IMG/VR virus record: IMGVR_UViG_3300037479_000047
Span: 1 to 55,077 of that record
DNA length: 55,077 nt
Origin: a virus
Taxonomy: Duplodnaviria > Caudoviricetes
Reading direction: 5' to 3' (one strand)
Shown here: piece by piece, positions 13,098-43,766 of the stretch
Position numbering within the stretch: position 1 is the stretch's first letter
Layout of the letters: each line of letters begins with the position of its first letter
Position numbers and translations under genes: made by a program
Notes under the pieces: generated by a model
What the model was told of the DNA's origin: nothing
The model's input: only the letters and a program-made list of their open reading frames with translations
Database searches by the model: none

Positions 13098-13156
13098 GCG
13101 CCGTGCCCGTGCTGCAACCAAGCCTTTCCGCAACAAGCAACGCAAAGGGCCGCTTG

Positions 13157-23404: not shown

Positions 23405-23683
23405 ATGGCGATTGGTGTGCCACGCGAATCTATCGGTGCGGTAGCGCCGGCAAGCTCGCTCAGGGAGGTATCTCCGACCGACACGGGAACTTTGGTAGGG
23501 ACAGATGCGCGGGCCTGTTTGTGGCTCTATGTCAGCGACACTGGGGATGTAGCCGTTGTAGCCGAGGCGGACACTGGCGAGCAAATTCTGACCATAGCCC
23601 AACCGGGGCGTGTTGATGTTAGGGCCAAGCGCGTTCGCGCGACCGGGACTACAGTTACAAAGGTCATAGCGGCGTTTGCATAA
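23405..23683 (+). CDS. Head spike base protein (RcGTA Rcc01079-like); 3 DTG motifs
   Basis: PA...V.P.D...L....LYV...G.V...RV.ATGTT...A pattern recognised from the family. Confidence 0.7.
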   Translation: MAIGVPRESIGAVAPASSLREVSPTDTGTLVGTDARACLWLYVSDTGDVAVVAEADTGEQILTIAQPGRVDVRAKRVRATGTTVTKVIAAFA

Positions 23684-23768
23684 AGGGAGTTGATCTATGG
23701 CGACAGCATCGCGCGACCCTAGCGAAAAGCATACAGAATGCTGGACGCGGGGAATATGGGGCTAAGGC

Positions 23769-24098
23769 GTGACGATCTGGACGCCCGACACCGACGATTG
23801 CCAGATTGAGATTTCCGACGATCCGGCTACACGCGGGCAAATTGTTGGATTTATTAGGGCGAGCAAGGTTCACGCGACGCCTGCCGATGTGCTGGCCGAG
23901 AACCAACGCAAGAACCGGATTTGCGCCGATGTGGAAGCGGCCGGGGTCAAACGCGAGTCCTTTGTTTGGTCGATCTCGCCGACAGATCGGGCTGTTGTCA
24001 TTACCGTAGTGGATGGGTCGCTCACCGGCACTCAAAAGGCCAGACTAGAGGATGACCTAGAAGCGAAGTCCGGCACCGGCACGGTAAGGGTGGTCTAG
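23769..24098 (+). CDS. Hypothetical protein
   Basis: 109 aa ORF coupled to the next gene. Confidence 0.6.
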   Translation: MTIWTPDTDDCQIEISDDPATRGQIVGFIRASKVHATPADVLAENQRKNRICADVEAAGVKRESFVWSISPTDRAVVITVVDGSLTGTQKARLEDDLEAKSGTGTVRVV

Positions 24099-25351
24099 TG
24101 GGCAAGGCGCTGCTGCTGTCCGGTTCCGCTGCTGGCACGGGACAGGCCGATACAACTACTATCGCCCTTTCCGGTGGAGCCTTTGCTGTTGCGGCGACTG
24201 CCGAGGCAAATTCCCAGTGCCCGCTCAACAAGGCGGGGACGCTCTCGAATTTGGCGATCAACATTAACACCACCGGGACCACTCGCTCGATTACTATGCG
24301 TAACAATGGAGCGAACGGCAACCAGACGGTTGCCATAGCTGACGGCGCGGGCGGTATCCACGAAGATGCGGTTAACACCGATACGATAGCGGCGGCAGAT
24401 AAGCTCAACACGGTTTTGAATGAGGCTGGAACAAATCCGACTGTTTATTGGATTCGCTATTTATTCGACGCGACTTCAAATCATGTCGCCTATTACGGTA
24501 GACAGGGAGCTATCGGCTTTTCAACGGCATCGACTACGGCTTACGGGCTGCTGAGTGGCGGGACGGGCGGAAATTTCACAACGACCATAGGCAACGCCCA
24601 ACAGACTATCCGCGCTCCCGGCGTTCTGAGCCGGTTCAATGTTTTCATTTCCGCCAACAACCGCACGACCACGACCACCATTAGCACCAATATCGGCGGC
24701 AGCGCGGGCAACGGCACGGTGTCGGTTACGAGCGGTGCCACGGGCCTGTTCGAGGACGCGACCAACACCGACACGGTATCCAGCGGATCGCTAGTCTGTA
24801 TTGAAATAGTAACAGGTACGGGGACGGAGACCATTACCGTCCAGCGCGCCGGGGTCACGCTCGAAAACACTACCGACGACAAGAACGATCTGTTTGCCGG
24901 GGCTGTTGTCTCCAGGTCGGCAAGTGCGACGGTCCACTATTTGCCGCTGTGTGGCGGCAGCACGCTTGCCGTTACGACCGAATCCCAGCCTGCGGTCACG
25001 CATAGTTTCAGCGGGACCGTAAGCCGCCTGCGGATGTATCTCTCGGCCAACACGTTAAGCGGTGGCAACGGAACAGTTAGGCTGCGTAAGGGCGGCACGG
25101 ACGGCAATCAAGTCCTGACGTTGACGGCGGCGACGACGGGTTTATTCGAGGACACGACCAACACCGACACATTCGTCGGCTCAGACACGGTAAACCTATC
25201 GATTGTCGATGCTGCGTCATCTGGAAGCATAACCGCGACACATTGGGCCGTGACCGAGGAAGAGACTGCGGCTGCTGTTAGCGGCGGCGGCAAACTGATT
25301 GGCGGCATTCTCACTCGACCTAAATTGATCCACGGGAGACTGGCCGCATGA
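24098..25351 (+). CDS. Thr/Gly-rich putative virion fibre or spike with three internal ~135-aa repeats
   Basis: GIHEDAVNTDT, GLFEDATNTDT and GLFEDTTNTDT, each preceded by G.LS/G.VS and GN.TV/GN.VL. Confidence 0.65.
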   Translation: MGKALLLSGSAAGTGQADTTTIALSGGAFAVAATAEANSQCPLNKAGTLSNLAININTTGTTRSITMRNNGANGNQTVAIADGAGGIHEDAVNTDTIAAADKLNTVLNEAGTNPTVYWIRYLFDATSNHVAYYGRQGAIGFSTASTTAYGLLSGGTGGNFTTTIGNAQQTIRAPGVLSRFNVFISANNRTTTTTISTNIGGSAGNGTVSVTSGATGLFEDATNTDTVSSGSLVCIEIVTGTGTETITVQRAGVTLENTTDDKNDLFAGAVVSRSASATVHYLPLCGGSTLAVTTESQPAVTHSFSGTVSRLRMYLSANTLSGGNGTVRLRKGGTDGNQVLTLTAATTGLFEDTTNTDTFVGSDTVNLSIVDAASSGSITATHWAVTEEETAAAVSGGGKLIGGILTRPKLIHGRLAA

Positions 25352-26439
25352 CGGCACCGTATTACGGCAAGCGTGAGCCGGGAGCCTTAACGGCGGCATC
25401 ACCAGGGGATACGCTCTATTTCAATTTCGGCGGCTATAACGATTCCGGTGACAGTGAGGCCGTGTCCGGCTTCGCGGTCACGGATATTGAGGTTTTCAAG
25501 AACGGGGATGCTACCGCTCGGGCCACCGACAGCGGTTATTCGCTTATCTCCGACACGGGACAAATCGGCAACCGAGTCGGTCTCAATCGCTTTAGCGTGC
25601 AGCTCTACAATACCGCTGACGACACCGGATTTTACGATGTAGGCGGCTGGTATCAGGTGGCCGTAGATTCGGTTACGGTCGATGGCAAGACCGTAAGATT
25701 TTGGGTTGGCTCGTTTGAGATCGGTCGGCAGCGCGTTAATGTGCGGGAGATCGTCGGTGATACTGGTGCAACTAGTCGGTTGCTCAAACTGGCCGGCACC
25801 AAAGTCAATGACAGCGGCACGTTCGATACGGGAACCGGTATTCTTCGTGGCGCTGCCGCTACCGTAGACACTGGCGCGGTTAATAACGCGGTATGGAATG
25901 GCAATGTGTCGGCGCATGTCGCTGACACGGGGTCATTTGGTTACGCGCAAGGCCGTCTTATGGCGGTCAGGAATGATACCGGCGCGGCTCACCTCGACCA
26001 GGGGCGCTTCGGTGTCATTTCTGACTCGGGCCGCGCAGCGGCAGTGCTGGATACGGGTAAGGTCGCAGCGGCAGTCTGGACCTCGCACGCCACGCGCACG
26101 CTAACCGCGTTTGCTCTCGATACAGGTATAGCACAGACCGTCTGGCGCGAGCAAAATTCGGCTTATACCGACACTGGCAGTTTCGGCTATGGCGTCAACG
26201 TCCACAAGATTGACAATGATACCGGAGCGGCGGCGCATGTGCAGCAAGCCTTTAACGTGCAAAGCGCGCTTGCCGATACGGGCCTGATTACAACGCAACT
26301 GGCTGCAATCAAGACCAAGACCGACAGCTTGACCTTCACCGTGGCCAATCAAGTCGATGCCAACACCCAATACGTCAACGATGTCCAGGTCCAAGGCACG
26401 GGCGACACGGGCACGGCGAATACATGGCGACCAGTATAA
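25348..26439 (+). CDS. Putative virion surface protein with 13 DTG and 4 DSG motifs
   Basis: Manual count; also AVW...GSFG repeats. Confidence 0.7.
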   Translation: MTAPYYGKREPGALTAASPGDTLYFNFGGYNDSGDSEAVSGFAVTDIEVFKNGDATARATDSGYSLISDTGQIGNRVGLNRFSVQLYNTADDTGFYDVGGWYQVAVDSVTVDGKTVRFWVGSFEIGRQRVNVREIVGDTGATSRLLKLAGTKVNDSGTFDTGTGILRGAAATVDTGAVNNAVWNGNVSAHVADTGSFGYAQGRLMAVRNDTGAAHLDQGRFGVISDSGRAAAVLDTGKVAAAVWTSHATRTLTAFALDTGIAQTVWREQNSAYTDTGSFGYGVNVHKIDNDTGAAAHVQQAFNVQSALADTGLITTQLAAIKTKTDSLTFTVANQVDANTQYVNDVQVQGTGDTGTANTWRPV

Positions 26440-26669
26440 CCAAGCGGGTTACCGCCGCCGCCAGTGCCGACAACACCAAGCGTGTTGCCACGAGCGGGGC
26501 CACAAGTGGCGGGCTCGGTGGCGATACCTGGGGCGGCACTTGGGGCGATACGTGGGGCAATACCTGGCACAACATCACCGCCGCAGGAACGGCAGTGCCG
26601 ACGCTTGACGTGACCAAGCGGGTGCAGGCAGCGGCCTCGGGCGGGCATACCAAGAGGGTTACGCTCTAA
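26424..26669 (+). CDS. Small repeat protein (TKRV x4; G-x-TW x4)
   Basis: GGDTWGGTWGDTWGNTW core flanked by TKRV pairs. Confidence 0.65.
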   Translation: MATSITKRVTAAASADNTKRVATSGATSGGLGGDTWGGTWGDTWGNTWHNITAAGTAVPTLDVTKRVQAAASGGHTKRVTL

Positions 26670-26828
26670 ATGCCGAGCAAAACGTCCAAGCAGGCCCGTT
26701 TCATGCGCGCGGTTGCGCATGGCTGGAAGCCGGGAGGTCGCAAGCCTCCGCCGATTGCTGTGGCCAAGGAATTTGTGCGCGCCGATAAGAGGCGCAAACG
26801 AACCATCGCCTCTGGCGACAACCATTAA
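26670..26828 (+). CDS. Small basic phage protein (MPSKTSKQARFMRAVAHGW...)
   Basis: 52 aa ORF starting immediately after the TAA at 26669. Confidence 0.6.
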   Translation: MPSKTSKQARFMRAVAHGWKPGGRKPPPIAVAKEFVRADKRRKRTIASGDNH

Positions 26829-26859
26829 GCAAACAGCAACAAGCGAAAGGACTAAAACC

Positions 26860-27774
26860 ATGACTGTCACCAAACAGGTGAGCTTGCATGGCAAGCGAGC
26901 CTTCCTCTCGAAAGAGGACATTCTTGTCGGACGCGGCGGCATTGCTGCGGGCGGCGATGACAAACCGACCATTGTGCTGCCTGGGGCACCCGATACCGTG
27001 GCGGTGTTCGATGATTTCCATGCGTCGCTTGTGGGCGACACCGGGAATATCGGCGACACCGGAAATGTCAGTGCCCATCAAGGCGGGCTGTATCTTTTGG
27101 CGGTCGGCACGGATACGGGCAATGAGATCAAACTGCAAAATTCCACTAACGGTGTGATCCGGCTTGGGCCGGTCACGGACGGGACGCAGACGCCTGCGGG
27201 CACAAACACGTCGCTAGTTGGCCGCACACATGCGTGGAAAGCCAACATGGGGCCAGGCGGTCACTCTGGTCGGCTTCGCTTCGCTGCGCGCCTGAAATGC
27301 CCTGGCAACGGTACGGTATGGAACGCAGGCTCTATTTTTGCGGGCTTCGCCGATACCGGCGTTCTCGGTGCTGGCACGTTCCCGATTTACGACACGGGGG
27401 CCTCTGATACTGGCGGCATTGCCGCTGTAGCTGATGCGGTAGGCTTCCTCTACGGCGAGAACGCCGATACGGGAATCCGTGGCGTGTCTGCGCGTGGTGG
27501 AGCTACTGGTCGTCAGTCTGTGACGCTTACCACCACGGCACCGACCGTTAACAAGTATCAGGTTTGGGAATTGGAACTGCATCGCAGTTCGTCCGACACA
27601 GGCGGCACGGCGACGTTCTGGATTGATGGTGTGCCGCAGGGAACCATTACCTCGCCGATCACAACCGCCGAGCCAGTGGTTCCGTATATCGGCATCATGG
27701 CCAGCGACACAGGAGCGCCCGCTCTTGATGTTGACTGGTTTGCTGTCAGCGCCCCGCGTGATACGGGCGAATAG
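26860..27774 (+). CDS. Putative virion beta-sandwich (lectin-like) protein with 10 DTG motifs
   Basis: ATG 26860 after AAAGGA; FDDF...ATFWIDG...LDVDW pattern; DTG counted manually. Confidence 0.65.
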   Translation: MTVTKQVSLHGKRAFLSKEDILVGRGGIAAGGDDKPTIVLPGAPDTVAVFDDFHASLVGDTGNIGDTGNVSAHQGGLYLLAVGTDTGNEIKLQNSTNGVIRLGPVTDGTQTPAGTNTSLVGRTHAWKANMGPGGHSGRLRFAARLKCPGNGTVWNAGSIFAGFADTGVLGAGTFPIYDTGASDTGGIAAVADAVGFLYGENADTGIRGVSARGGATGRQSVTLTTTAPTVNKYQVWELELHRSSSDTGGTATFWIDGVPQGTITSPITTAEPVVPYIGIMASDTGAPALDVDWFAVSAPRDTGE

Positions 27775-27785
27775 GAGGTTTTTGC

Positions 27786-28403
27786 GTGAGTGCTGAAACT
27801 GAGGGGGCGGTCACAGAGGCCGCCCCTCCCTCTTATGAGGGCATTGCCATTCTCGGCTCGCACCCGGCGACCGTGGAGATGGCGCCCTTCGATGACCCAG
27901 GGTGGATCATTTACGCGTGCAGCCCGCATAATTTCGAGATGCGGCAATTGCCCCGCTTCGATGAATGGTTCGAGGTGCATCCCCAATTGTCAGATGCCAC
28001 GCGAGCCTATCCATATTTGAAATATGTCGAATCGCTGCCGCTTGTGTGGCTCAGGGACAAGGATGCTCTGCCTTATATCCCCGGCGGTAGGCTGTATCCA
28101 GACGCCGAGATGGCGGCCCGATTCGGACCGTTCAATAACACCAGCTCCATTGCTTTGATGATGATGCGAGCCATTGTCGAATGCGAGCGTTTGCACGCCG
28201 AAGGCAAAATGCCGGAGCCTAAGATTGGGCTGTTTGGCATCATGCAAGCCAGTCCGAACGAATATACCTATCAGCGTCCGACGATTCAGCAATTAGTCTG
28301 GGAGGCATCCAAGAAAGAGCGTGAATTGCTGGGCCGCCCGCGCATCCACGTGATCGCGCCGGATATCAGCAAGCTGTTTGAGCCGCCACCGGAGAACTTC
28401 TGA
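27786..28403 (+). CDS. Putative Maf/CstII-like (sialyltransferase-fold) glycosyltransferase
   Basis: IAILGSHP N-terminal strand-loop, TSSIALMM helix and IGLFGI strand resemble the GxGPS...SV...IYLxGxD layout of this fold. Confidence 0.45.
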   Translation: MSAETEGAVTEAAPPSYEGIAILGSHPATVEMAPFDDPGWIIYACSPHNFEMRQLPRFDEWFEVHPQLSDATRAYPYLKYVESLPLVWLRDKDALPYIPGGRLYPDAEMAARFGPFNNTSSIALMMMRAIVECERLHAEGKMPEPKIGLFGIMQASPNEYTYQRPTIQQLVWEASKKERELLGRPRIHVIAPDISKLFEPPPENF

Positions 28404-28994
28404 GTGATCTATGTTCGTGGGGCCGATTCCGAGATAGCCAAAGCCCTTGCGGAACTACATCCTATCGTCGGCGTGCCGCGCGGCAGCCATATGCCGCTCG
28501 ACAAGGATAAATACCTATTTTGCGTCGGCCTGATCCGGCAAGCGCCGATCACCGAGCAATACGATAACGAAATAGCCGAGACGTTCCTAGTGAACGCGGC
28601 CAATGTAATACGCGAGTGCGAGTATCTCCTGGGGAACAACCGGGAGGCGCGCATTTGTGTTGTGGGATCGGAGTCGGGCTTCAAATGGTCCTTTGACGGG
28701 GCCTATGCGGCGGCCAAGGCTGCGCTGCATCGCTACGTCGAAACCAGACGGCTTAGGCATCCACTGCAACAGCTTGTTTGTGTGGCTCCGACTTGTGTTC
28801 TGGGGACGCGCATGAACTTGCAGCGCACCCCGGATGGGGTGCGGGCCTTGGAGGCCAGGCGCGTCAGGCACCCCAAGCAGAGATGGCTTGAGCCGATCGA
28901 GGTGGCGCGGATGATTAACTTCCTGCTCAACGTCGATAATGGCTACATCACAAACACGGTTATTAGAATGAATGGCGGCGAGCATTGCGTGTAG
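28404..28994 (+). CDS. Short SDR-family oxidoreductase
   Basis: YAAAK catalytic YxxxK, VVGS and C-terminal ITNTVIRMNGG. Confidence 0.75.
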   Translation: MIYVRGADSEIAKALAELHPIVGVPRGSHMPLDKDKYLFCVGLIRQAPITEQYDNEIAETFLVNAANVIRECEYLLGNNREARICVVGSESGFKWSFDGAYAAAKAALHRYVETRRLRHPLQQLVCVAPTCVLGTRMNLQRTPDGVRALEARRVRHPKQRWLEPIEVARMINFLLNVDNGYITNTVIRMNGGEHCV

Positions 28995-30049
28995 CGGTCA
29001 TCGGCGGCGGCATCTTCGGCTGCACTGCGGCGGTATATCTCAACCGTGCCGGCCATGAAGTGCATCTATTCGAGGCCAAGGACAGCCTGCTTAGATGCGC
29101 CTCCGGCATCAATCAGTTTCGCTTGCATGCGGGCTATCACTACCCACGCAGCCCGGAAACAATCGCGGAGTGCAAGCGCTCGCTCCGCTCCTTTCGCAAG
29201 GAATATGCGCCAGCCATTAGGGGTATGGGCCGGCACTATTATGCGGTGGCCCGTCACGGCAGCAAGCTCGGCGCCAGGGAATATCTCGATGCGCTTGACG
29301 CAAGCAATTTGGAGTATTGTATAGCCTCTACAGCAGGGGTGTTGAACCAGGACGAGGTTGAACTCGCCATACTGGTGCGAGAAGCGTGGCTTGAGCCTTC
29401 CGTATTGCGCGGGCTGGTGTGGGAACGGCTTAAGAGCGTCGAGCTGCATTTCAACACGCAGCCGGACAATTCGCTGCGGGACAAGTTCGATAAGATTATA
29501 ATTGCGGCCTATGCGGCGACCAATGACGTTGCTTTGGCCTTGGGTTGCGCGGTCGAGCCGTTCCAGTTTGAGTTATGTGAAAAGCCGGTGCTGCGCTTGC
29601 CGCAGGAGTGGACCTCGGTTGGTGTGGTGGTAATGGACGGGGAGTTCTGCTCGCTCGATCCGTTTGACAACACTGGATGTCACATCATGGGGCACGTCAC
29701 CCATGCCATCCATGCCACAAGTGTAGGGCTTGAGCCGGAGCTTGGAGAATTGAAGCCCTATCTGAATGCCGGCGTTATTAGGAATCCGCCAGACACGCGG
29801 GTCAACCGCTTTCTAGAGGATGGCCGCACGTTCATTCCGGCGTTGGACAAGGCGGAGCATGTCGGCTCGATGTTCACGATGCGAGTGGTGCTGCCCGAGC
29901 GCGAGGATACCGACGAGCGTTTGACTATGGTTGACGAATTAGACGAGCAGGTCATCCGTATATTTTCCGGCAAGCTCGGCTCAGCGGTAGACGCGGCAAA
30001 CAGGGCTGTGGAATTGGTTGGAACACAGACAGCAAGGATTGCAGCATGA
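28985..30049 (+). CDS. FAD-dependent oxidoreductase (DAO-like)
   Basis: VAVIGGGIFG, ASGINQFRLHAGYHYPRS and FSGK. Confidence 0.85.
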   Translation: MRVAVIGGGIFGCTAAVYLNRAGHEVHLFEAKDSLLRCASGINQFRLHAGYHYPRSPETIAECKRSLRSFRKEYAPAIRGMGRHYYAVARHGSKLGAREYLDALDASNLEYCIASTAGVLNQDEVELAILVREAWLEPSVLRGLVWERLKSVELHFNTQPDNSLRDKFDKIIIAAYAATNDVALALGCAVEPFQFELCEKPVLRLPQEWTSVGVVVMDGEFCSLDPFDNTGCHIMGHVTHAIHATSVGLEPELGELKPYLNAGVIRNPPDTRVNRFLEDGRTFIPALDKAEHVGSMFTMRVVLPEREDTDERLTMVDELDEQVIRIFSGKLGSAVDAANRAVELVGTQTARIAA

Positions 30050-30230
30050 GCCCATTTCGTCATGAAGGTATGACGCCATCACTGTTACGCGCCGCGCGGT
30101 TTCGCGGCCTCTTTCGCGGCCCCTTTCCCCATCAGGAAGGGCGTGAACGCAAGCGTCCAAAGCCGATACAAGCTGGGGCGACGACCATTGCCGCTAGCGC
30201 CCCGCCCCCGAATATGCCGCGCAATCAGCT

Positions 30231-30932
30231 TTGATTACGGTTGTCTGCTATCTCTGGCGAGACAACACACGCGACAATCGCGGCTATACGTTTCAGCATG
30301 ACCATGTGCGCGTTTTGCAAAGCATGGTGAAGCGGAACTTAAGCGTTCCGCACCGCTTTGTTTGCGTCACGGATGATAAAGTGCAGGGCGTGCAAACCGT
30401 GCCGATGGACTGGCGCAAGCACATTCCCGGCACGGTGTTTGCTCGCTTGATGCAGCATAACCCGGACTGGTGTAGGGCCAATCTTGGCGAGCGGGTTTTG
30501 TCTCTTGATATCGACGTGGTGATAACACGGTCGATTGACCACATCGTATCGCGTTCAGAGGACTTTGTGATTTGGCGCAATCCGAATTTCGGACAGCCGC
30601 AGCGCGCGTTCTACCAGTCCAGCGTGCAGCTGTTCAGCGCCGGCGCGAGGCCGCAACTCTGGCACGACTTCGATCCGAGGGAAACGCCCAAATGGGTCAA
30701 CTGGAGATTTGGCGGCAAGGAACAAGCCTGGATTTCCGAGCGGCTGGAATGGGACGAAGCCTATTTCTCGGACAAGGACGGGATTTACGGCGCGGGGCGG
30801 CTAGGCGGGAACGGGGTTTATAGCGAGTTGCCAGAGAATGCCTGCATCGTGAGTTTCCCTGGCGCTCGCGCCCCGTGGCAGCCCGAGGTGCAGGAGAAGC
30901 ATCCGTGGGTCAAGGAACATTACCGGCTGTAA
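30231..30932 (+). CDS. GT-A fold glycosyltransferase
   Basis: ITVVCYLW, RFVCVTD, VLSLDIDVVI (DxD), EQAWIS and IVSFPG..PW. Confidence 0.8.
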   Translation: MITVVCYLWRDNTRDNRGYTFQHDHVRVLQSMVKRNLSVPHRFVCVTDDKVQGVQTVPMDWRKHIPGTVFARLMQHNPDWCRANLGERVLSLDIDVVITRSIDHIVSRSEDFVIWRNPNFGQPQRAFYQSSVQLFSAGARPQLWHDFDPRETPKWVNWRFGGKEQAWISERLEWDEAYFSDKDGIYGAGRLGGNGVYSELPENACIVSFPGARAPWQPEVQEKHPWVKEHYRL

Positions 30933-31034
30933 TTGCTCGGCTCATTGACCACACTCCGATAGCCAAAGCTGAGCCCGAGACGCTATTACGCGGACAGCGC
31001 AAAACGGAAACCTGCCCGGACGGGCAATGCCTAA

Positions 31035-31264
31035 TGAGGGCGCCCATGAGTGCAAATGCTGCCAATCGAGTAAAGGACGCGGTTGAGCGGGTTGTTACCA
31101 GCCTCGAACAGGCTGCTGATGGGACAGCCGAGCGGCTCAACCGACTTACCACAGAAGCGCTCGATAAATTCCACCGCGTAGAAAAGAGCGTGGCCGACCC
31201 TTTGGAGCAGGCGCTAAAGGGCTTGGACGAACTGCTCGGGTCGAACATTCCTCCAGAGGAATGA
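31035..31264 (+). CDS. Small helical hypothetical protein
   Basis: ATG inside ORF 30875..31264; amphipathic helix. Confidence 0.45.
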
Positions 31265-31449
31265 ACGCTGTTGCGGCTATCGCCATAGTGGCAATGTTTC
31301 TCGCGTTCCTCTGGGCAGGAATCCCGCAAGGGCCTAGTAACCAATCGTCACCGTCTGGTGACCCAGAGGTCATTCTTTACATCGACCCGCCAGCGTCTAG
31401 CGACATATTCTTTCCGTCGCTTCCCGACCGCAATCCAACGAGGGGCTGA
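31261..31449 (+). CDS. Small membrane-anchored protein
   Basis: N-terminal hydrophobic helix; coupled at both ends. Confidence 0.45.
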   Translation: MNAVAAIAIVAMFLAFLWAGIPQGPSNQSSPSGDPEVILYIDPPASSDIFFPSLPDRNPTRG

Positions 31450-32075
31450 TGAGCGATATTTTTTCGCACATGCATTATATCAAAACGTCGCAAGACGGCG
31501 GAGCTGGGAAATATCACGGCGCGGTCGCCCACGGCTATGATGCAAAGCGCGAGCAATCTCCGAAATGGCTGTCCGAGCAGCGTCTCGTTGAGGATATGCT
31601 GAGCGATATGCCGGCCGGGAATTGGGTGCTTGACGTGCCGTGCGGAACCGGACGGTTTTTCAAGTTCTATCACGATAAGGGTTTCCTCTTCCGCGCCTAT
31701 GACAAAAGCGCGGACATGCTACGGATCGCGGCTAACAAAGTAGTCGATCCAGTGCAGGTCATTTTAGGACAGTTTGACGTGCTAGCCCTTCCACTGTCGG
31801 ACAAATCTGTAGACGCATCGGTGATGGTGCGGTTGACTAGGTGGCTCTCCCCACAGGATTGCCAACGAGCCCTGAAAGAATTGCAGCGGGTGACGCGGGA
31901 TCGAATTATCTTGACGGCGCGGGTGGCCAACCATCCCCATGCGCGACCCGTGGAACTATTTACTGAGGCATTAGCAGATGACTGGCGGCTAGACAAGAAC
32001 GAGCGCGGCTATTGCGACGAATACCGGGTGTTGCGGTTTAGGAGAGATGCCGGTGCTGCTCAGCCTAATCAATAG
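31449..32075 (+). CDS. Class I SAM-dependent methyltransferase
   Basis: VLDVPCGTGRF, DKSADML, LPLSDKSVD and ALKELQRV. Confidence 0.85.
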   Translation: MSDIFSHMHYIKTSQDGGAGKYHGAVAHGYDAKREQSPKWLSEQRLVEDMLSDMPAGNWVLDVPCGTGRFFKFYHDKGFLFRAYDKSADMLRIAANKVVDPVQVILGQFDVLALPLSDKSVDASVMVRLTRWLSPQDCQRALKELQRVTRDRIILTARVANHPHARPVELFTEALADDWRLDKNERGYCDEYRVLRFRRDAGAAQPNQ

Positions 32076-32107
32076 GGCGCTCCAAGACTTCCGCCGGAGG
32101 CAAGTGG

Positions 32108-32776
32108 TTGCGCTGGGTTGACCTGTGCGGTCCTCCCGGTAGCGGTAAAAGCACATTAGCCGATCCGTTGTGGGGACCACATCAAATCCCAATCGAGAAT
32201 CGGCTGCCGCCCGCTCAGTGGCACGATTTTCTCAACGAAGTAACCCGGCTGTTTCATCTAATCCGGAAGCATCGCACATTCGGCGCGGCGGTCAGAATGA
32301 ACAATCGCTCGGTGCGCAAGGTCGCCACCGTGGCTCGGATGCAAAATGCAGACACCTATATTCAAACTGCCCTGGCGCAACGTGGCTTAGGCTTCGGCTG
32401 GCGGCTCAACGATCTCGGCATAAACCTGAACGAGCTTCGTCATTATTTCCGGCTGATGCCAGTGAGTGTTGGCGTGGCCTTTACCGCATGTCCGGAGGCC
32501 GAAGTCATCCGCCGCAACCATCTGCGCGAGACGGTCAAAGCTACCGCGCACGAAAACCGGGACTTCATGGTGATGTTGATGCGTCCAGCCATTGAAATAG
32601 CCAAGGAGGTTTTGCTTGAGCGAGGCGTTCCACTTGTCGAGATCGACACCTCCGGCCCCCCTGAGCTTGGACGCGCCCAACTTACTCGTTTTGCCGCCCA
32701 AGCGCCTTTTGACCTCTCGCAGAATGGACCTGGCATGCAAGTGGAGGTTCTTTCGCCACCCCCGTGGTGGCAATGA
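32108..32776 (+). CDS. P-loop kinase-like protein
   Basis: N-terminal VDLCGPPGSGKST; GGAGG RBS before TTG. Confidence 0.7.
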   Translation: MRWVDLCGPPGSGKSTLADPLWGPHQIPIENRLPPAQWHDFLNEVTRLFHLIRKHRTFGAAVRMNNRSVRKVATVARMQNADTYIQTALAQRGLGFGWRLNDLGINLNELRHYFRLMPVSVGVAFTACPEAEVIRRNHLRETVKATAHENRDFMVMLMRPAIEIAKEVLLERGVPLVEIDTSGPPELGRAQLTRFAAQAPFDLSQNGPGMQVEVLSPPPWWQ

Positions 32777-33152
32777 CCCGGACGCCGAGCGAGTCTATCG
32801 CTGGCATATTGAGGCTCGTATCGGCCCGAGAATGCAGCTCGGGCTTGCCACCGACAGGTGGAAGCGAACCGTTGAAGATTATCTCCGGGCCGCGCGTGAC
32901 CTTTTTGCTTCGATGCAAAGACATGGCTTCCTGCCGCAAGGGGCCATCCCGATAGACCCACAAGGGGAATTGCTCGGCGGGGCACATCGTCTCGCGTGTG
33001 CTCTAGCATTGAACATACCGCTTGTAAGCGCGGTGAAACTGCCGCACATGGTTTGGGCACCGCCATGGCATAGGGAGTGGTTTGTCGAGCACGGCATGAC
33101 GCGAGAAGATTTGCAGCGGCTTGATGCCGATTGGGACTTTATGCGCCGGTGA
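32616..33152 (+). CDS. ParB/sulfiredoxin-fold protein (start probably 32667-32724)
   Basis: SMQRHGF...IPID...LLGGAHRLACA. Confidence 0.55.
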   Translation: MSEAFHLSRSTPPAPLSLDAPNLLVLPPKRLLTSRRMDLACKWRFFRHPRGGNDPDAERVYRWHIEARIGPRMQLGLATDRWKRTVEDYLRAARDLFASMQRHGFLPQGAIPIDPQGELLGGAHRLACALALNIPLVSAVKLPHMVWAPPWHREWFVEHGMTREDLQRLDADWDFMRR

Positions 33153-34924: not shown

Positions 34925-34925
34925 C

Positions 34926-36569: not shown

Positions 36570-36834
36570 GCCGCCGGCGACTTACGCCGCTCCCACCCTT
36601 AGAGAGGCGCGCGCCATACACGCCTTTGCCAAGGGTGAGGCATCAGCGGATCAACAGAAATTAGCTTTCAATTGGATTGTTCGGGAAGCGTGTCGGGCAG
36701 GCAAGGAAGTGCTTGCACCGGGACAGCCGGACCTAACCGCTTATTATGCGGGACGCTTATCTGTGTCCCTGCAAATTGGCTGGGTGCTTGGTCAGCCAGC
36801 CGAGGCTTTCAGAGATAGAGGAGAAACAGATTGA
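36547..36834 (+). CDS. Bbp19-like small protein
   Basis: TAYYAGRLSV...I motif; lies between portal and scaffold. Confidence 0.55.
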   Translation: MARPAFSKPPATYAAPTLREARAIHAFAKGEASADQQKLAFNWIVREACRAGKEVLAPGQPDLTAYYAGRLSVSLQIGWVLGQPAEAFRDRGETD

Positions 36835-37856: not shown

Positions 37857-38021
37857 TTCTCGATGCACCCCGGCACCCGGTAACGGACCGGAAGGGCGTC
37901 ATTCACTCCCGTTTGTGACGAGCCTTTGGCTATCGAGCGGACCCGCAAGGGCAACCCGTAGCGTCAGCGAATAAGGACACCCTGAACGGACAGCATCTTC
38001 AACATTAGGGAGATGCCAATT

Positions 38022-38855
38022 ATGGCTGATACTGCCTTTCAGACTCAGTATCGGCAGGAGCTTGTTGCAGCCTTCGAAGAGGGCATGTCCTGGTTGCGCC
38101 AGACGACCGTTACCGAAGCGGTTATCAAAGGCAATCAGGCTGTGTTTCTTGTGGGCGGCTCTGGCAATGCTTCTGCCGTTACGCGAGGTGTTAACGGTCT
38201 GATCCCGGCGCGTGCCGACGATCTGACTCAGAACACCTGCACACTGACCGAGTGGCACGATCTTGTTCGCAAAACTCGGTTCAACATCTTTGCATCGCAG
38301 GGCGATCAGCGCCGGTTGATGCAAGACACAACCCGCAAGGTTCTCAATCGCCGCGTTGACGCTGACGTAATAGCGCAGCTTGACACGGCGACCACGAATC
38401 TTGGGGCGGCAACGACGTTCTCGCTTTCTGTGGCGGCAAAGGCATGCACCACGCTGGGCGAGAATGAGGTTCCAGTTGAGGAGATTGACAAGATGTGGGC
38501 GGTAGCCACCCCTGCAGTGCGCGGCTACATCATGCAACTCCCCGAGGCAACCAAGATCGACTATGTTGAGATGAAAATGCTAGTTGGTCCGGCGCGGCGC
38601 GTGATGCGTTGGGCTGGGTTCAACTGGATTTTCCACCCGAATCTGACCGGCGTCGGCACGTCTTCGGAGAAGTGCTACTTCTACCATCAGGACGCCATCG
38701 GCTCGGCCTTTGACCAGGGTGAAGGTCTCAATACGGCGGTAGGCTACGACGAGGAGCAGGACTATTCCTATGCTCGCGCGTCCAGCTTCACTGGTGCCAA
38801 GCTCCTCCAACAGACCGGCATCGTGCAGTTCTTGCATGACGCCTCGGCCATATAG
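38022..38855 (+). CDS. Major capsid protein
   Basis: FQTQYRQE...WLRQT, RWAGFNWI and CYFYHQDAIG; position after scaffold. Confidence 0.82.
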   Translation: MADTAFQTQYRQELVAAFEEGMSWLRQTTVTEAVIKGNQAVFLVGGSGNASAVTRGVNGLIPARADDLTQNTCTLTEWHDLVRKTRFNIFASQGDQRRLMQDTTRKVLNRRVDADVIAQLDTATTNLGAATTFSLSVAAKACTTLGENEVPVEEIDKMWAVATPAVRGYIMQLPEATKIDYVEMKMLVGPARRVMRWAGFNWIFHPNLTGVGTSSEKCYFYHQDAIGSAFDQGEGLNTAVGYDEEQDYSYARASSFTGAKLLQQTGIVQFLHDASAI

Positions 38856-38867
38856 GAGGGCTGAACA

Positions 38868-39185
38868 ATGGCAACCTTTAACAAAAACAAGTTGGGTCTA
38901 GTGTTCCAGGCGATTGCTGGGCCAAAGACCTTTTACTACACCGATACCGGTTTGCTCATCGCGGATGTCAACGAAGTCGAGGGTTTTTTCACCACCGGCT
39001 ACGACTGCGGCATGCGCCACGGCGACCGAGTGCTTATCCAGGAAGGCGACACGGGCACCTTTGATACCAGTGGGCGTCAGACGGGCGGCCGGAGGCAGTA
39101 TATCGCTACTGTGCTCAAGGCAACCGATACTGGTGCTACACAGGTGACGCTCGGAACGGCCGTTCTCGTTGGTGATACCTCTTAG
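38868..39185 (+). CDS. Putative capsid decoration protein; 3 DTG motifs
   Basis: Small beta-rich ORF directly after the capsid gene with a strong RBS, followed by a terminator. Confidence 0.6.
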   Translation: MATFNKNKLGLVFQAIAGPKTFYYTDTGLLIADVNEVEGFFTTGYDCGMRHGDRVLIQEGDTGTFDTSGRQTGGRRQYIATVLKATDTGATQVTLGTAVLVGDTS

Positions 39186-39211
39186 TGGGTGTCATCATAG
39201 ACTAACCCGAG

Positions 39212-39240
39212 GGAGCGGTCAGCGATGGCCGCTCCTTTTT
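39212..39240 (+). terminator. Rho-independent terminator after the capsid genes
   Basis: GGAGCGGTC-loop-GGCCGCTCC followed by TTTTT. Confidence 0.7.
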
Positions 39241-39266
39241 ACCCTCCCTTCAGAAAGGATTTATCA

Positions 39267-39785
39267 ATGTCTGACGTTGCTGTTGCAGCGAATGTTAAGG
39301 CTGTCAAGAAGCCCGAACCCGCCCCAGAGCAACCGCTTGTGTTAAAGCCGCAGGCGTTCAGTGGGGCCGAATTTGCTTATGCGACCTTCTCTGCCACGCT
39401 TCCGGTCGGCTGGACGGTTGAGGATGCACTTAAGCCCGAGTTCTGGGTGCATGTGGCGCACAAACTCGCCAAAAACCCCATTAGCAATGAGCCGGATCGG
39501 TCGGGTGCGATTATCGAGCTTCGCACCGTCGATCATGCCTTTTATGCACAGCTCTATGTGCGGGCAGTGCAAGAGCGGGGATTGGTTGTCGCGTTGATGG
39601 GCGAGCCGGTCTATTTCGGGCCGCGCGAGGTCAAATCGGCAGCTTACAAAGAACGCTGGAATGTTGGCGCTCGCGGTTACGACATTATCCGCGTGTCGGA
39701 TAATGAAATCGTGGCGCATGCCTCAAAGATCAAAACCAAAGAGCAGGTGCAAGCCTGGATTGATGAAGCAATGAAGGTGCGATAA
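39267..39785 (+). CDS. Hypothetical protein
   Basis: ATG after GAAAGGA inside ORF 39225..39785. Confidence 0.65.
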   Translation: MSDVAVAANVKAVKKPEPAPEQPLVLKPQAFSGAEFAYATFSATLPVGWTVEDALKPEFWVHVAHKLAKNPISNEPDRSGAIIELRTVDHAFYAQLYVRAVQERGLVVALMGEPVYFGPREVKSAAYKERWNVGARGYDIIRVSDNEIVAHASKIKTKEQVQAWIDEAMKVR

Positions 39786-40423
39786 TGGCAACCAAGCTGG
39801 CCTTGTTCAACGCTGCCTTGCTAGAGGTTGGGCATACTACACTCACCGATACGGGCGAGGCGGTTGAGGCGGGGCGCGTGCTGAACGAGGTTTATAGTCA
39901 GGTTGTTGATGAATGTCTGGCGGTCGGCTCTTGGAACTTTGCTATGGAGACCATCAAGGCCGAGGCGGATACCGGAGTGACTCCAGAGTTTGGCTTCACC
40001 GAGGTATTCGCCAAGCCGACCGATTGGGTACGCACCATTGGCATCAGCCAGGATGAGTATTTCGCCTATCCGCTGTTGCACTACTACGACGATGCAAATT
40101 TCTGGTCGGCGGATGTATCGCCAATTTATGTGCGCTATGTGTCTGACGATACCGGGCTAGGCTATGAACTCACACGCTGGCCGGCCGCGTTCGCTCGTTA
40201 TGTCGGGTTGGAATTGGCCGATCGTATCTGTTTAAGGGTAACGCAAAATTTGTCTCTCAGGGAAGAGATCGCTGCTAAACGTGACAAGGCAAGGACGCGA
40301 GCACTCAACCATGATGCGATGAATGAGCCGCAGCCCAAGTTTGCGCCGCCTGGGAGCTGGACAACCGCAAGATGGGGTCGGTCGGGCGGCGACCGTGGCA
40401 ATCGCGGCAGTTTGATCGGCTAG
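39785..40423 (+). CDS. Tail tubular protein A / adaptor (T7 gp11-like); 3 DTG motifs
   Basis: N.AL..VG, WNFA, P.D.VR and LA..IC motifs. Confidence 0.8.
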   Translation: MATKLALFNAALLEVGHTTLTDTGEAVEAGRVLNEVYSQVVDECLAVGSWNFAMETIKAEADTGVTPEFGFTEVFAKPTDWVRTIGISQDEYFAYPLLHYYDDANFWSADVSPIYVRYVSDDTGLGYELTRWPAAFARYVGLELADRICLRVTQNLSLREEIAAKRDKARTRALNHDAMNEPQPKFAPPGSWTTARWGRSGGDRGNRGSLIG

Positions 40424-40427
40424 GGCG

Positions 40428-43400
40428 ATGGCGCGCCAGAATCCAGCCCTGCTCGCCTTTAATCGCGGGATTCTCTCCACCAAGGCTCTCGCTCGGGTAG
40501 ACCTCGACCGCACGCAGCTTTCGGCCGAGGTGATGACTAATTGGCTCCCCAAAACTCAGGGAGCCATGATCATTCGCCCTGGCACCAAGCATCTCGGATC
40601 GAGCCTGAATGACAGCGGTGCCGAGTGGATTGAATTTGTCGCCTCCACGGATGACGCGGCGCTGTTGGAACTTACGCATAAGAAGCTGCGGGTGTGGATT
40701 GACGACGCGCTCTTGGCGCGTCCCGATGTCAACACTACCGTTTCGCTTTCCGACACGGGATGGTCGAACACGTCAACGGGCGGGCTGGTTGTCTCCGGCG
40801 GCACCCCCGACCTTGACAACGATGTTATTCCTAAGATGGATACCGGCCCCACCTTCGCTGGGGTGACGATTACAGCCTCAGGCGATAGCCGTGTATTATC
40901 GGGTGTTAGCAGTGGCAGACCTTGGAGGGCCGCTGACGACACGACCACTGAAGAATGGCTAGATACTGGTCAAGTAGCCTCTGGCACGTTTAAGCCGAGC
41001 TGGTGGAAAATCAATTTCGGCACAGATACCGGAAACCGTAAAGCCGTATTGGCTTATTCGATACGGGCCGGCAGTCAAAGCAACTTTCTCAATAAAGCGC
41101 CCCAACGTTGGCAGCTTATTGCCAGCAATTTCGACACCGGCACGTTTGCAATAGATACTGGCAAGTGGAGATTGGAGGATACGCAAGGCTCGGAGACGGG
41201 CTGGGCTACCAATGAGCGTCGGTTTTATACATTGCCCGGAGCCGATACGGGCACAGTGGAGCCTCGGCGTTATTGGCGTTTGAGTATCAAGGCGGTGGAT
41301 GGCGGTCCCTGTTGTATCATCTCAGAAATTGAGATGTTCGAGGGCCAGCAATCGTCGCAAGCTATCTTCAAGAGCGGTCACTGGACACTTAATCCGACCT
41401 CGATAGGGGCGCTGGCCCAGATTCGCAAGCGGGTTGTTGTCAGCGACACTGGCACCGAGCACTCGCTGGATATTCATGTTTCGCGCGGGCCTGTTACGTT
41501 GCGGGTCGGCACGGCGGATGCAGGCGACGACCTTATTAGTGAAACTGTGCTCGGTACTGGCTATCATAATCTAGCCTTTACACCACAATCAACGCATTTT
41601 CATATTCTCTTTCAATCTTCCGAACTCGCAGATCGGATAATCAATTCGCTACAAATCGGTGACAGCGGGATTGTGCAGATTGAGACCCCCTGGGAAACTG
41701 TCAATCTTGACGACGTTCGTTACGATCAATCTGCGGACGTGATTTATGTCGATTGCGATACGATTTCGCCGCGCAAGATTGAACGGCGTGGGACCGGGCG
41801 ATCTTGGTCCGTAGTCGAATACCAGCCGAATGACGGCCCGTTCCGTCCGGCGGCATCGTCAAATGCCAAGCTGTCGGTAAGCCATAAATACGGCAATACG
41901 AAGCTAAATTCGGACTTGCCATTTTTCAGAAATAGCCAAGTCGGCGCGCTCATGCGCCTGTTTACTTCCGGGCAAAGCGGTCTTTGGCCGCTAGGTGCAA
42001 AAGATGCCGCAACGGATGCGGTACAGGTTACGGGCATTAGCGACACCGGAGCGGCGACCGGCAATTCCGAGCGAGAAGTTTCTATCTCGGTCGCGGGAAC
42101 CTGGTCTGGAACGGCACAGGTCGAGCGGTCGTTTGACGGTCCCGACATCGGATTCCATCCGGCCACGCCGAACTTCATGGCCAATGCTGCGGCGACCGAT
42201 ACCGGAACCTTTACCCGCACCGTTCACGACAAGGACGATAATATCACGGCATGGTATCGGGTGCGGTTGACGGCCTACACCTCGGGTGTCGCGCTGGTGA
42301 CGATCGCCTACAAGGGCGGTGGCGTTAATGGCATAGCGAGAATTACCGGCCACAATTCCAGTACCGATGTAAACATTGAGGTGCTTAGTCGCTTTTCCGA
42401 CACGGGGCCAACCGACAGTTGGCAAGAGGGCGAGTTTTCGGGACGTCGGGGGTTCCCGACGGCGGTGTCCTTATATAGCGGCAGGCTCGGCCACGCGAAA
42501 AAGGCCACTCTATTTCTCTCCGCGTCCGATGACTATGAAAATTTCGATGATGAGCAAGTAGGCGATGCCGCTCCGATCATCCGCACGCTTGGCTCGGGCC
42601 CGGTAGATAGCATTGTCTACTTATTGGCGCTGTTGCGCCTAGTGATAGGCACGTCTGGCGCCGAAATCGAATTGCGCTCTTCGTCGCTGGACGAGCCGGT
42701 TACCCCGGACAATTCCAATGCGCGGATATTCTCGACGCAAGGCTCGGCCAACCTTCGGGCGTTAAGGCTCGATACTAAGGGCATCTTCGTGCAGAGGTCC
42801 GGTCAGCGCATGTTTATGATCGGAGCCGGCCTGCGCGATGCTTCTGCTTTTGGGGAATACAGCAATTCGGAATTGACGATGCTGGTTCCAGATTTGCTGG
42901 AAGCCGGCATTGTTTCGGTGGCCATTCAGCGCCAGCCCGACACGCGCATTCATGCGGCGTTGGCCAATGGCAAGGTGGGCATTCTCACCTATGAACCGGA
43001 TGAAGAAGTGCTGTGCTGGTCGATGTGGGAGACGGATGGCGCGGTTGAGCGGGTCATGGTGCTTCCGGGCACCAACGAGGATGCCGTTTATTATCACGTC
43101 AATCGCACCATCAACGGCGCGACCAAGCGCTTCCTCGAGCGCTGGGCATTAGAGAGCGAGACAAAAGGCGATACTGGACTCACCTTCCTAATGGATTGTG
43201 CCAAGCAGGGCACCACTAACGGCACGGCCATTGTTTCAGGGTTTGCCCATCTTGCCGGTGAGGCATTGGTCGCTGTGGCGCAAGACACCGGCCAAGTTGC
43301 TGCTATGCGCGATTTGTCGCCGGATACTGCCGGGATCCAGAAGACCTATTTAGTGGATACGGGTGCAGGAACCATTACCCTCGACACTGGCAATTTTACC

Positions 43401-43766
43401 AATGTGGTGGCTGGTCTACCCTATACTGCCACCTATAAATCTACCAAACTCGCTTATGCAGCGGAGGCCGGGACGGCTCTCGCGCAGATGAAGCGCACCG
43501 ATAAGATTGGCTTCGTGCTGCATCGCGTGCATAACAACGCGCTGTTTTTTGGCAATGACACCGGCAAGCTCGATGCGCTTCCGCGCAAGATCGACGGTGG
43601 TGCCTTAGTAAATCCCGACAAAATCTTCGACTCCCTCGATCAAGTAGCGGTCCCGTTCCCAGGTTTATGGGATGCCGATAGCCGCATTGTGTTACGCGCG
43701 AAGTCCCCCAGGCCGGTGACAGTAATGGCGGCGGTGCCAACCGTTGGCACGTCCGAACGAGTGTGA
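40428..43766 (+). CDS. Tail tubular protein B / nozzle with inserted discoidin-like domain; 16 DTG motifs
   Basis: FNRG.LS...RPGT, QSADV, GFP.AV...RL and GLPY motifs of the gp12/P22 gp10 nozzle family. Confidence 0.85.
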   Translation: MARQNPALLAFNRGILSTKALARVDLDRTQLSAEVMTNWLPKTQGAMIIRPGTKHLGSSLNDSGAEWIEFVASTDDAALLELTHKKLRVWIDDALLARPDVNTTVSLSDTGWSNTSTGGLVVSGGTPDLDNDVIPKMDTGPTFAGVTITASGDSRVLSGVSSGRPWRAADDTTTEEWLDTGQVASGTFKPSWWKINFGTDTGNRKAVLAYSIRAGSQSNFLNKAPQRWQLIASNFDTGTFAIDTGKWRLEDTQGSETGWATNERRFYTLPGADTGTVEPRRYWRLSIKAVDGGPCCIISEIEMFEGQQSSQAIFKSGHWTLNPTSIGALAQIRKRVVVSDTGTEHSLDIHVSRGPVTLRVGTADAGDDLISETVLGTGYHNLAFTPQSTHFHILFQSSELADRIINSLQIGDSGIVQIETPWETVNLDDVRYDQSADVIYVDCDTISPRKIERRGTGRSWSVVEYQPNDGPFRPAASSNAKLSVSHKYGNTKLNSDLPFFRNSQVGALMRLFTSGQSGLWPLGAKDAATDAVQVTGISDTGAATGNSEREVSISVAGTWSGTAQVERSFDGPDIGFHPATPNFMANAAATDTGTFTRTVHDKDDNITAWYRVRLTAYTSGVALVTIAYKGGGVNGIARITGHNSSTDVNIEVLSRFSDTGPTDSWQEGEFSGRRGFPTAVSLYSGRLGHAKKATLFLSASDDYENFDDEQVGDAAPIIRTLGSGPVDSIVYLLALLRLVIGTSGAEIELRSSSLDEPVTPDNSNARIFSTQGSANLRALRLDTKGIFVQRSGQRMFMIGAGLRDASAFGEYSNSELTMLVPDLLEAGIVSVAIQRQPDTRIHAALANGKVGILTYEPDEEVLCWSMWETDGAVERVMVLPGTNEDAVYYHVNRTINGATKRFLERWALESETKGDTGLTFLMDCAKQGTTNGTAIVSGFAHLAGEALVAVAQDTGQVAAMRDLSPDTAGIQKTYLVDTGAGTITLDTGNFTNVVAGLPYTATYKSTKLAYAAEAGTALAQMKRTDKIGFVLHRVHNNALFFGNDTGKLDALPRKIDGGALVNPDKIFDSLDQVAVPFPGLWDADSRIVLRAKSPRPVTVMAAVPTVGTSERV

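Follow-up and report, generated by a model that had tools for sequence, protein, structure and literature searches.

Introduction

Why a single tripeptide should recur in several unrelated virion proteins of one phage, beside a cluster of putative glycan-synthesis genes, is the question raised by the viral genome IMGVR_UViG_3300037479_000047. The window, i.e., the whole stretch of DNA that was analysed, is this complete IMG/VR virus record of 55,077 bases, with an estimated completeness of 94%; the tripeptide is Asp-Thr-Gly (DTG), and the gene cluster, hereafter the island, lies in the late region among virion genes. An initial annotation of this DNA had proposed that the phage attaches a modified sugar or another group to the threonine of DTG across the virion surface. 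We present here a statistical, comparative and structural analysis of this proposal. The DTG signal is real and is selected as a peptide; furthermore, DTG may constitute a sequon at which outer virion proteins are modified in the cytoplasm by enzymes of the phage, most likely through O-glycosylation of threonine by the island, a reading for which our confidence and our doubt are about equally strong.

The right arm of the window corresponds to the late operon, encoded on the + strand, in which a NusG-like gene (21795; genes are designated by their first coordinate) is followed by fibre-like genes, the island and the large terminase (33131), and then by the portal (34926), the major capsid protein (38013), the tail adaptor (39785), the tail nozzle (40428), internal proteins and a lysin. 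The tail is of the T7 podovirus type by both profile and fold, as indicated by the adaptor (phrog_394) and by the nozzle (phrog_376, 8ck1 and T7 gp12), and the phages studied here are an uncultivated clade of podoviruses, i.e., phages with short tails. No close named phage was found, the best nozzle match among 50,697 records being 27.5% identical and the best adaptor match 29%.

Results

DTG enrichment and selection on the peptide

Six genes on the + strand (Table 1) encode 48 DTG within 2188 aa, compared with 1.8 expected from composition (z = 34), and DTG is the sole multi-copy outlier among all tripeptides in the six proteins. When each protein was shuffled 20,000 times, the observed count was never reached for 23405, 25348, 26860 and 40428, and it was reached in 9 shuffles for 38868 and in a single one for 39785. 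DTG is entirely lacking from the remaining 73 of the 79 open reading frames (ORFs) called greedily in the window, in which 3.06 copies would be expected. Within the six proteins, 30% of all aspartates (48/160) belong to a DTG, and glycine comes after 48 of the 58 DT dipeptides. Our recount reproduced exactly the per-gene numbers of DTG and DSG given in the initial annotation, and its rough figure of two copies by chance agrees with the computed value, the enrichment being upheld in the shuffles.

At the nucleotide level, the degenerate sequence GAYACNGG has 51 copies on the + strand and a single one on the - strand, with about 9 expected on either; 48 of the 51 are in-frame DTG sites, and every wobble position varies. 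The six proteins fall into six separate BLAST clusters and are thus non-homologous. Since the motif is in frame, strand-specific and written with varied codons, selection acts on the peptide, as had been argued from the non-homology of the proteins and the codon variation. The strand bias by itself might suggest that the motif acts in DNA or RNA, e.g., as a Chi-like or regulatory element; however, nearly all copies are in frame within six genes with all three wobble positions free, the motif is restricted to certain proteins, and the peptide is kept among homologues of 67-83% protein identity. A DNA-level motif was rejected because the copies are in frame and their wobble positions degenerate, and we give this explanation next to no weight.

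DTG-richness as a trait of one phage clade

Selection on the peptide extends beyond the window. Copies of GAYACNGG on the + strand exceed those on the - strand in all 32 related IMG/VR loci. In the adaptor, the best 120 of 479 matches (67-83% identical), aligned together with the protein of the window, all carry DTG at the same three alignment positions and exactly three each (120/120). Five near-complete relatives (68-101 kb; G001-G005) were taken whole for comparison, and the same families carry the motif in them, with 13-17 DTG in the nozzle, 3 in the adaptor, 2-3 in the small post-capsid protein and 4-35 in the fibre-like proteins. Homologues of the fibre-like protein 25348 in G002-G005 contain 9, 10, 18 and 35 DTG, the last in a protein of 911 aa. 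Homologues of 38868, whose product may be a head decoration or connector protein, carry 2-4 DTG in 31 of 31 DTG-rich loci, and none in three of the four from DTG-poor loci.

More distant homologues have a different composition. The distant adaptor alignment comprised the window and 97 single-domain representatives drawn from the 150 best matches of an exhaustive search; of these 98 rows, 87 lack DTG altogether and 6 carry a single copy; three copies are seen in 4 (the window being one of them) and four copies in 1. At the three DTG sites, the outgroup adaptors display SLT, DPS, DSS and similar combinations, in variable polar loops. Among 60 complete nozzle ORFs, all 23 clade nozzles carry 10-22 DTG and all 37 outgroup nozzles carry 0-3; DTG is the most over-represented tripeptide in each of the 23 (z 12-20), and the 37 share no outlier tripeptide, their top tripeptides all having three copies or fewer. 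The 18 D[ST]G sites of the window nozzle face variable residues or gaps in 20 outgroup nozzles. Inside the clade about 10 nozzle sites are fixed and the others are gained or lost with loop indels, with DSG replacing DTG at times. Clade nozzles are 1087-1142 aa long, about 200 aa above the outgroup (mostly 880-997 aa), and as many as 7 of the 18 D[ST]G sites fall in the extra segment, at residues ~100-330, several of them being gapped in 20 of 20 outgroup rows. Likewise, the outgroup homologues of 26860 have a similar N-terminus (SLHGR...) and adjoin the terminase (TerL) on its upstream side, and they carry no DTG; the start at 26860 agrees with this conserved N-terminus.

Judged from these alignments, DTG-richness is a derived trait of the phage clade. 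Homologues equally rich in DTG in phages devoid of the island, which would have spoken against the initial annotation, were found neither among the nozzles nor among the outgroup adaptors, which mostly have no DTG.

Motif specificity and avoidance in other virion proteins

In the DTG-rich proteins of six genomes taken together, DTG occurs 247 times (10.9 expected) and DSG 25 times (8.1 expected), DSG being a minor variant of the motif. The near-cognates ETG, NTG, DTA, DTS and DVG are all under expectation in the same protein set (e.g., DTA 5 vs 10.5 and DTS 3 vs 7.5), and the residues flanking DTG display no preference over ~3-fold.

The remaining proteins of the six genomes contain 15 DTG, compared with 29.0 expected (Poisson P = 0.003). 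In DTG-rich loci the motif is absent from the capsid protein (0/28), the portal (0/15) and the terminase (0/11), as well as from phrog_3742 (the 36831 family, 0/29), the 43763 family (0/21) and the 44121 family (0/16). Among outgroup, DTG-poor capsid proteins, 23 of 47 carry one DTG, in 22 cases at one and the same column, within a loop; this column reads NLG, SLG or TLG in all 28 DTG-rich loci. DTG has thus been gained in some proteins and purged from others, and this fits the prediction of a trans-acting reader. The modification had been envisaged across the virion surface, a scope that proved too broad, as DTG is entirely missing from the major capsid protein.

Virion proteins of tailed phages assemble in the cytoplasm, and the reader of DTG could alternatively be a host enzyme, e.g., of a general O-glycosylation system related to the D-(S/T)-x system of Bacteroidota, in which case the island would only supply or edit sugars. 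The Bacteroidota motif is (D)(S/T)(A/I/L/V/M/T), extended to S/C/G/F, and O-glycosylation at DT*G has been proven in Tannerella forsythia (PMC8550257). The phage motif resembles it in being an Asp-first, three-residue motif with Ser/Thr in second position, present on many unrelated surface proteins, and DTG fits the extended form. However, the Bacteroidota system is encoded by the host and works on proteins already exported to the periplasm (PMC8550257), and the phage substrates are cytoplasmic virion proteins with soluble phage proteins as candidate enzymes. Furthermore, the third position is broad in Bacteroidota and almost invariably glycine in the phage, with DTA and DTS depleted; the phage motifs consequently do not follow a Bacteroidota-type spectrum. 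We consider a host reader quite improbable. Hints as to the host may also point elsewhere: the GC (guanine-cytosine) content is 55-63%, the search of genome contigs gave a single match, a 3.2-kb contig of a Burkholderiales metagenome-assembled genome, and a GcrA-like gene in the left arm of the window, which we take as a possible hint of an alphaproteobacterial host, points away from Bacteroidota.

Location of DTG in the predicted nozzle structure

An AlphaFold2 model of the nozzle was obtained from a 41-row alignment (mean predicted local distance difference test, pLDDT, 85.5), and its Foldseek matches were 8ck1 (E 1.2e-40) and T7 gp12 entries. The Thr or Ser is modelled outside helix and strand at 17 of the 18 D[ST]G sites, and 14 of the 18 sites lie entirely so, coil accounting for 49% of the model; the DTG are located in turns between strands. 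The expectation that the sites would map to exposed loops was thus borne out as far as loops are concerned, in a confident model, the evidence being the secondary structure of the nozzle.

Turns of this kind could also harbour a motif that is never modified, i.e., a structural or binding loop element for a cation, a host surface sugar or another virion protein, with an island that serves the modification of the host envelope or of DNA and is linked to DTG by ancestry. This explanation, which we regard as unlikely, is favoured by the strict conservation of the positions, with all three kept in the adaptor (in the best 120 of 479 homologues) and about 10 in the nozzle. It is harder to reconcile with the simultaneous gain of one tripeptide by six unrelated folds, at positions that vary or do not exist in relatives, and a local structural motif does not predict the depletion of near-cognates or the avoidance in non-target proteins.

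Gene content of the island

In the DTG clade the island is inserted between a conserved virion gene (the 26860 family) and the terminase, and in three outgroup phages a homologue of 27786 sits between the 26860 homologue and the terminase. Its core consists of 27786, 30231, 31449, 32108 and 32616, all of them present in five of five relatives by tblastn. Two phage-encoded glycosyltransferases, 27786 and 30231, lie between the fibre genes and the terminase, downstream of the NusG-like gene.

For 27786, the identification rests on the predicted fold. The best Foldseek match of its model is CstII (E 1.2e-3, prob 1.0), and VIA-align gave Z 9.9 with Maf 5mu5 (root-mean-square deviation 3.2, 161 aligned), Z 9.9 with the P. 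multocida sialyltransferase and Z 9.4-9.6 with CstII, compared with Z of about 4-5 for unrelated folds. At the sequence level no Pfam family (PF01973 included) or NCBIfam family was matched, and a sequence search of the PDB gave nothing useful; a weak lead came from the Atlas, with a value of 0.83 to a cluster that has PF01973 in 16% of its members. The model accordingly indicates the Maf/CstII catalytic-domain fold. A predicted complex of 27786 with the adaptor 39785 scored 0.00 (mark 0.32), a result that is neutral as to binding.

The second candidate, 30231, is a GT-A-type protein in whose DxD motif D93 and D95 are invariant in 15 sequences, and its family numbers 1-3 copies per island, with 2-3 in each of the five relatives. 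It has no Pfam match by sequence or profile, a PDB sequence search gave nothing useful, and matches to GT8 profiles were not significant (E 0.3-0.8). The P-loop protein 32108 has neighbours in the Atlas carrying AAA_33, AAA_18 and SKI, and weak profile matches to UMP-CMP and adenylate kinases (E 0.016-0.03), its PDB sequence search giving nothing useful. No Pfam or PDB match was obtained for the 32616 family; its 'GGxHR' motif may be ParB/Srx-like. Across ten proteins, NCBIfam yielded only generic matches to short-chain dehydrogenase/reductase (SDR), flavin adenine dinucleotide (FAD)-dependent and methyltransferase families, below the cut-offs.

The end of 32108 and 32616 overlap by ~160 nt in different frames. 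Conservation in relatives seems to extend to both frames; a genuine overlap and a programmed frameshift are both conceivable.

The accessory part of the island varies. Relative G002 encodes a true UDP-galactopyranose mutase (GLF, E 4.5e-63) at the island position of the FAD oxidoreductase, and FkbM-type methyltransferases are found in the islands of G001 and G003. The cassette listed in the initial annotation was confirmed in its glycosyltransferase and methyltransferase; its oxidoreductases, the SDR and the FAD enzyme, turned out to be accessory only, and its kinase is a protein with only a P-loop kinase-like fold. Overall, the island is credibly a soluble, diversifying glycan-synthesis module that shares the late operon with virion genes, as far as gene content can tell.

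Other roles were considered for the island. Envelope-modifying systems comprise flippases, polymerases and GtrA-type membrane proteins. No polytopic membrane protein was found among the island ORFs of six genomes; envelope modification was rejected on this ground, and the lack of such proteins weighs against the unmodified reading. DNA hypermodification was likewise rejected, as no thymidylate-synthase-like or base-hydroxymethylating enzyme was detected among the 20 non-island proteins scanned, a set that does not comprise every small ORF.

Table 1. Genes of the late operon that encode DTG-bearing proteins, island enzymes and the capsid control (coordinates in the window)
Coordinates	Strand	Product	Length (aa)	Supporting matches and motif content
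23405..23683	+	Tail-fibre-family protein	92	phrog_12296 'tail fiber protein', E 1.8e-8; 3 DTG at residues 26, 45, 56
25348..26439	+	Fibre-like protein	363	13 DTG and 4 DSG, many spaced 15-19 residues
26860..27774	+	Conserved protein	304	10 DTG; 4-5 DTG in relatives
27786..28403	+	Predicted CstII/Maf-fold (GT42-like, PF01973-like) glycosyltransferase, single domain; core	205	AlphaFold2 model, pLDDT 93.9
28404..28994	+	SDR; accessory		Pfam adh_short_C2, E 1.8e-8; in 3/5 relatives
28985..30049	+	FAD-dependent oxidoreductase; accessory		Pfam DAO, E 2.6e-13, NAD_binding_8; in 2/5 relatives
30231..30932	+	GT-A-type glycosyltransferase, DxD; core	233	phrog_1962 'glycosyltransferase', E 1.1e-12
31449..32075	+	S-adenosylmethionine (SAM)-dependent methyltransferase; core		Pfam Methyltransf_25, E 4.3e-13
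32108..32776	+	P-loop (GPPGSGKST) kinase-like protein; core	222	Weak AAA_33/AAA_18 matches
32616..33152	+	Conserved protein, invariant ...GxHRxACA...; core	~170	No Pfam or PDB match
38013..38855	+	Major capsid protein (negative control)		phrog_3437, E 7e-53; 0 DTG
38868..39185	+	Protein directly after major capsid gene	105	phrog_18004; 3 DTG
39785..40423	+	Tail adaptor (tail tubular protein A family)	212	phrog_394, E 6e-34; 3 invariant DTG
40428..43766	+	Tail nozzle (tail tubular protein B, T7 gp12-like)	1112	phrog_376, E 4.6e-130; 16 DTG and 2 DSG

Co-occurrence of the island with DTG

For co-occurrence we used loci in which the terminase match is preceded by 1.3 kb or more, comprising 11 DTG-rich and 23 DTG-poor loci; two of the latter are rich by a crude DNA-count rule, their nozzles having 0 and 1 DTG. 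All 11 DTG-rich loci carry the gene 32616 and 10 of them carry 32108, the exception being the locus with the shortest flank, and none of 30231, 31449, 32108 and 32616 was found in any of the 23 DTG-poor loci. The island therefore travels with DTG-richness among related phages, an association on which the initial annotation had proposed to test its claim.

In a tree of the capsid protein, the DTG-rich loci group together with 100/100 support, in a clade that also includes two mosaics with outgroup-type tails. The DTG-rich state needs at least three changes on this tree, still few independent events. Island and DTG-rich nozzle are both present in a separate lineage (L062/L063), whose nozzle has 7 DTG within its first 528 residues, and the sister L064 has neither. 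A genome-contig search with the P-loop protein of this separate lineage returned its own contig only. As a marker of DTG, the glycosyltransferase 30231 alone was discarded, as homologues occur in Tetraselmis viridis virus S20 and EBPR siphovirus 3 with no DTG excess.

The strict association of 32108 and 32616 with DTG-richness, together with the occurrence of 27786 and 30231 relatives in phages with no DTG enrichment, leaves room for a sequon of another kind, read by clade-specific genes other than glycosyltransferases, with the glycosyltransferases acting elsewhere or on a primed residue. The threonine might then be phosphorylated by 32108, perhaps together with 32616, or methylated by 31449. 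However, the kinase matches of 32108 are weak (E at least 0.016) and tend toward small-molecule and nucleotide kinases rather than protein kinases, 32616 has no recognisable family, and a variable island rich in paralogues, with GLF and FkbM genes, resembles glycan synthesis. A modification other than a sugar, by any of these routes, is in our estimation improbable.

Neighbouring genes

Additional features were observed around the genes described above. Between two DTG-rich genes lies 24098-25351 (+), encoding a 417-aa Thr/Gly-rich fibre-like protein with repeated 'GLFED.TNTDT' units. The fibre-like protein 25348 itself matched no PHROG, Pfam or NCBIfam family. Also between two DTG-rich genes, an ORF of 81 aa (26424-26669, +) contains a Trp-rich stretch, GGDTWGGTWGDTWGNTW, along with repeated 'TKRV' ends and no DTG; its homologues are present in G002 and G003. 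A putative gene with an ATG start, 22858-23082 (+), lies 5' of the fibre genes and encodes 74 aa with one in-frame DTG (YSDTGLA), overlapping other candidate ORFs.

In the representative library, long proteins (up to 2416 aa) contain 3-16 tandem adaptor matches (P0121-P0141 and others), which could be real repeats or artefacts of read-through or assembly. Downstream of the tail genes, G002-G004 (L041, L051-L052, L055) encode giant proteins of 3446-4977 aa with one DTG each.

The left arm of the window carries ERF and YqaJ recombination genes and genes for two DNA methylases, along with one for a GcrA-like regulator that also contains HNH and AP2 domains. Two HNH-AP2 proteins are encoded, at 12899-14050 and 21232-21798 (both +), and it is the former that is fused to the GcrA cell-cycle-regulator domain.

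Discussion

Integrating these findings, we propose that DTG, with DSG as a minor form, would be a short acceptor motif installed in exposed loops of outer virion proteins, namely the nozzle, the adaptor, the small post-capsid protein and the fibre-like proteins. Late in infection, the soluble enzymes of the island would recognise the motif in the host cytoplasm, and its threonine would be O-glycosylated, the glycan being started by one glycosyltransferase, either 27786 with its CstII/Maf fold or 30231 of the GT-A type. Extension or trimming of the glycan may then fall to the variable genes of the island, which encode methyltransferases and GT-A paralogues, the P-loop kinase-like protein, the SDR, and a flavoenzyme or UDP-galactopyranose mutase. 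We infer both that DTG is modified at all and that the modification is a sugar, as well as which enzymes would read it; shielding, adhesion and stability are all candidate roles. The modified threonine put forward by the initial annotation has thus gained in plausibility from a motif that is clade-specific and located in predicted loops, and from an accompanying island with glycosyltransferase folds; its surface-wide scope has been abandoned, and the modification itself is deduced from sequences and models.

Several points weigh against this proposal. The co-occurrence is largely that of one clade and one further lineage, and mosaicism could have moved the island and the tail genes together, or both could simply have been inherited; a predominance of one clade would equally suit an unmodified motif. 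Homologues of 27786 (34-35% identical) are present in three DTG-poor phages, and a 36%-identical homologue of 30231 is found in Tetraselmis viridis virus S20 (NC_020840.1), in which neither DTG nor another tripeptide is enriched. Neither 32108 nor 32616, the two genes whose link with DTG is the strictest, encodes a glycosyltransferase. DTG is absent from the capsid protein, which offers the largest surface of the virion, and likewise from the fibre-like protein 24098, which has no homologue in the five relatives. Finally, Asp, Thr and Gly favour loops in any case, and the placement in loops was read from modelled secondary structure rather than from solvent exposure.

Phage-encoded glycosylation of virions has reported precedents, with which the proposed O-glycosylation at DTG may be compared. 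In 2023, Freeman et al. are said to have found mycobacteriophage virions to be glycosylated by phage-encoded glycosyltransferases, reportedly with glycans on capsid and tail-tube subunits and with no strict tripeptide sequon. That system resembles the present one in having phage glycosyltransferase genes beside structural genes, with virion proteins as presumed substrates; in contrast to it, DTG here spares the capsid and is borne by the nozzle, the adaptor and the fibres, and the site is a strict tripeptide. Tetraselmis viridis virus S20 (L058) provides a further case, with an island of ~6 kb (26950-33219) between its capsid and head-closure genes, in which the 30231 homologue lies near annotated methyltransferase, glycosyltransferase and sialyltransferase genes. 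Conversely, S20 is a siphovirus, the glycosyltransferase is its only gene in common with the window, and no tripeptide is enriched in its virion proteins.

With respect to the enzyme, Maf proteins have a catalytic domain resembling Cst-II and O-glycosylate exposed Ser/Thr of flagellin with no known sequon (PMC11339370). The predicted fold of 27786 aligns with the Maf central domain, and the Maf substrate, like the candidate substrates of the phage, later forms an extracellular assembly (PMC11339370). Unlike Maf, 27786 is a single domain of 205 aa that lacks the N- and C-terminal Maf domains, with no sequence match to PF01973. A different case is a tail protein of a mycobacteriophage that is methylated at an 'ELS' motif in a host-dependent manner (PMC13445384). 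Our literature search, which left most subscription papers outside its reach, retrieved no report of a DTG motif or of a tripeptide sequon on phage virion proteins.

We tentatively conclude, with a confidence that falls somewhat short of an even balance, that a strict D-T-G code directs the phage's own cytoplasmic glycosylation to chosen loops and has been purged from non-target proteins, which would represent the first sequon-directed glycosylation of a bacterial virus. If so, DTG would be the first viral example of a strict minimal O-sequon, and the tripeptide together with a few small soluble enzymes would constitute a compact and portable glyco-tag, useful for glyco-engineering in the bacterial cytoplasm. 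The code reaches 35 sites in a single fibre protein, and the variable island would diversify the glycan between related phages. Were the modification something other than a sugar, the coordinated gain in six unrelated proteins and the loss from the capsid would still demand a trans-acting reader. An excess of one tripeptide in virion proteins with its depletion elsewhere offers a signature for hidden modification systems in metagenomic viruses. Should DTG be a glycosylation tag, virion glycosylation would be a genome-shaping trait of environmental podoviruses, beyond a curiosity of mycobacteriophages.

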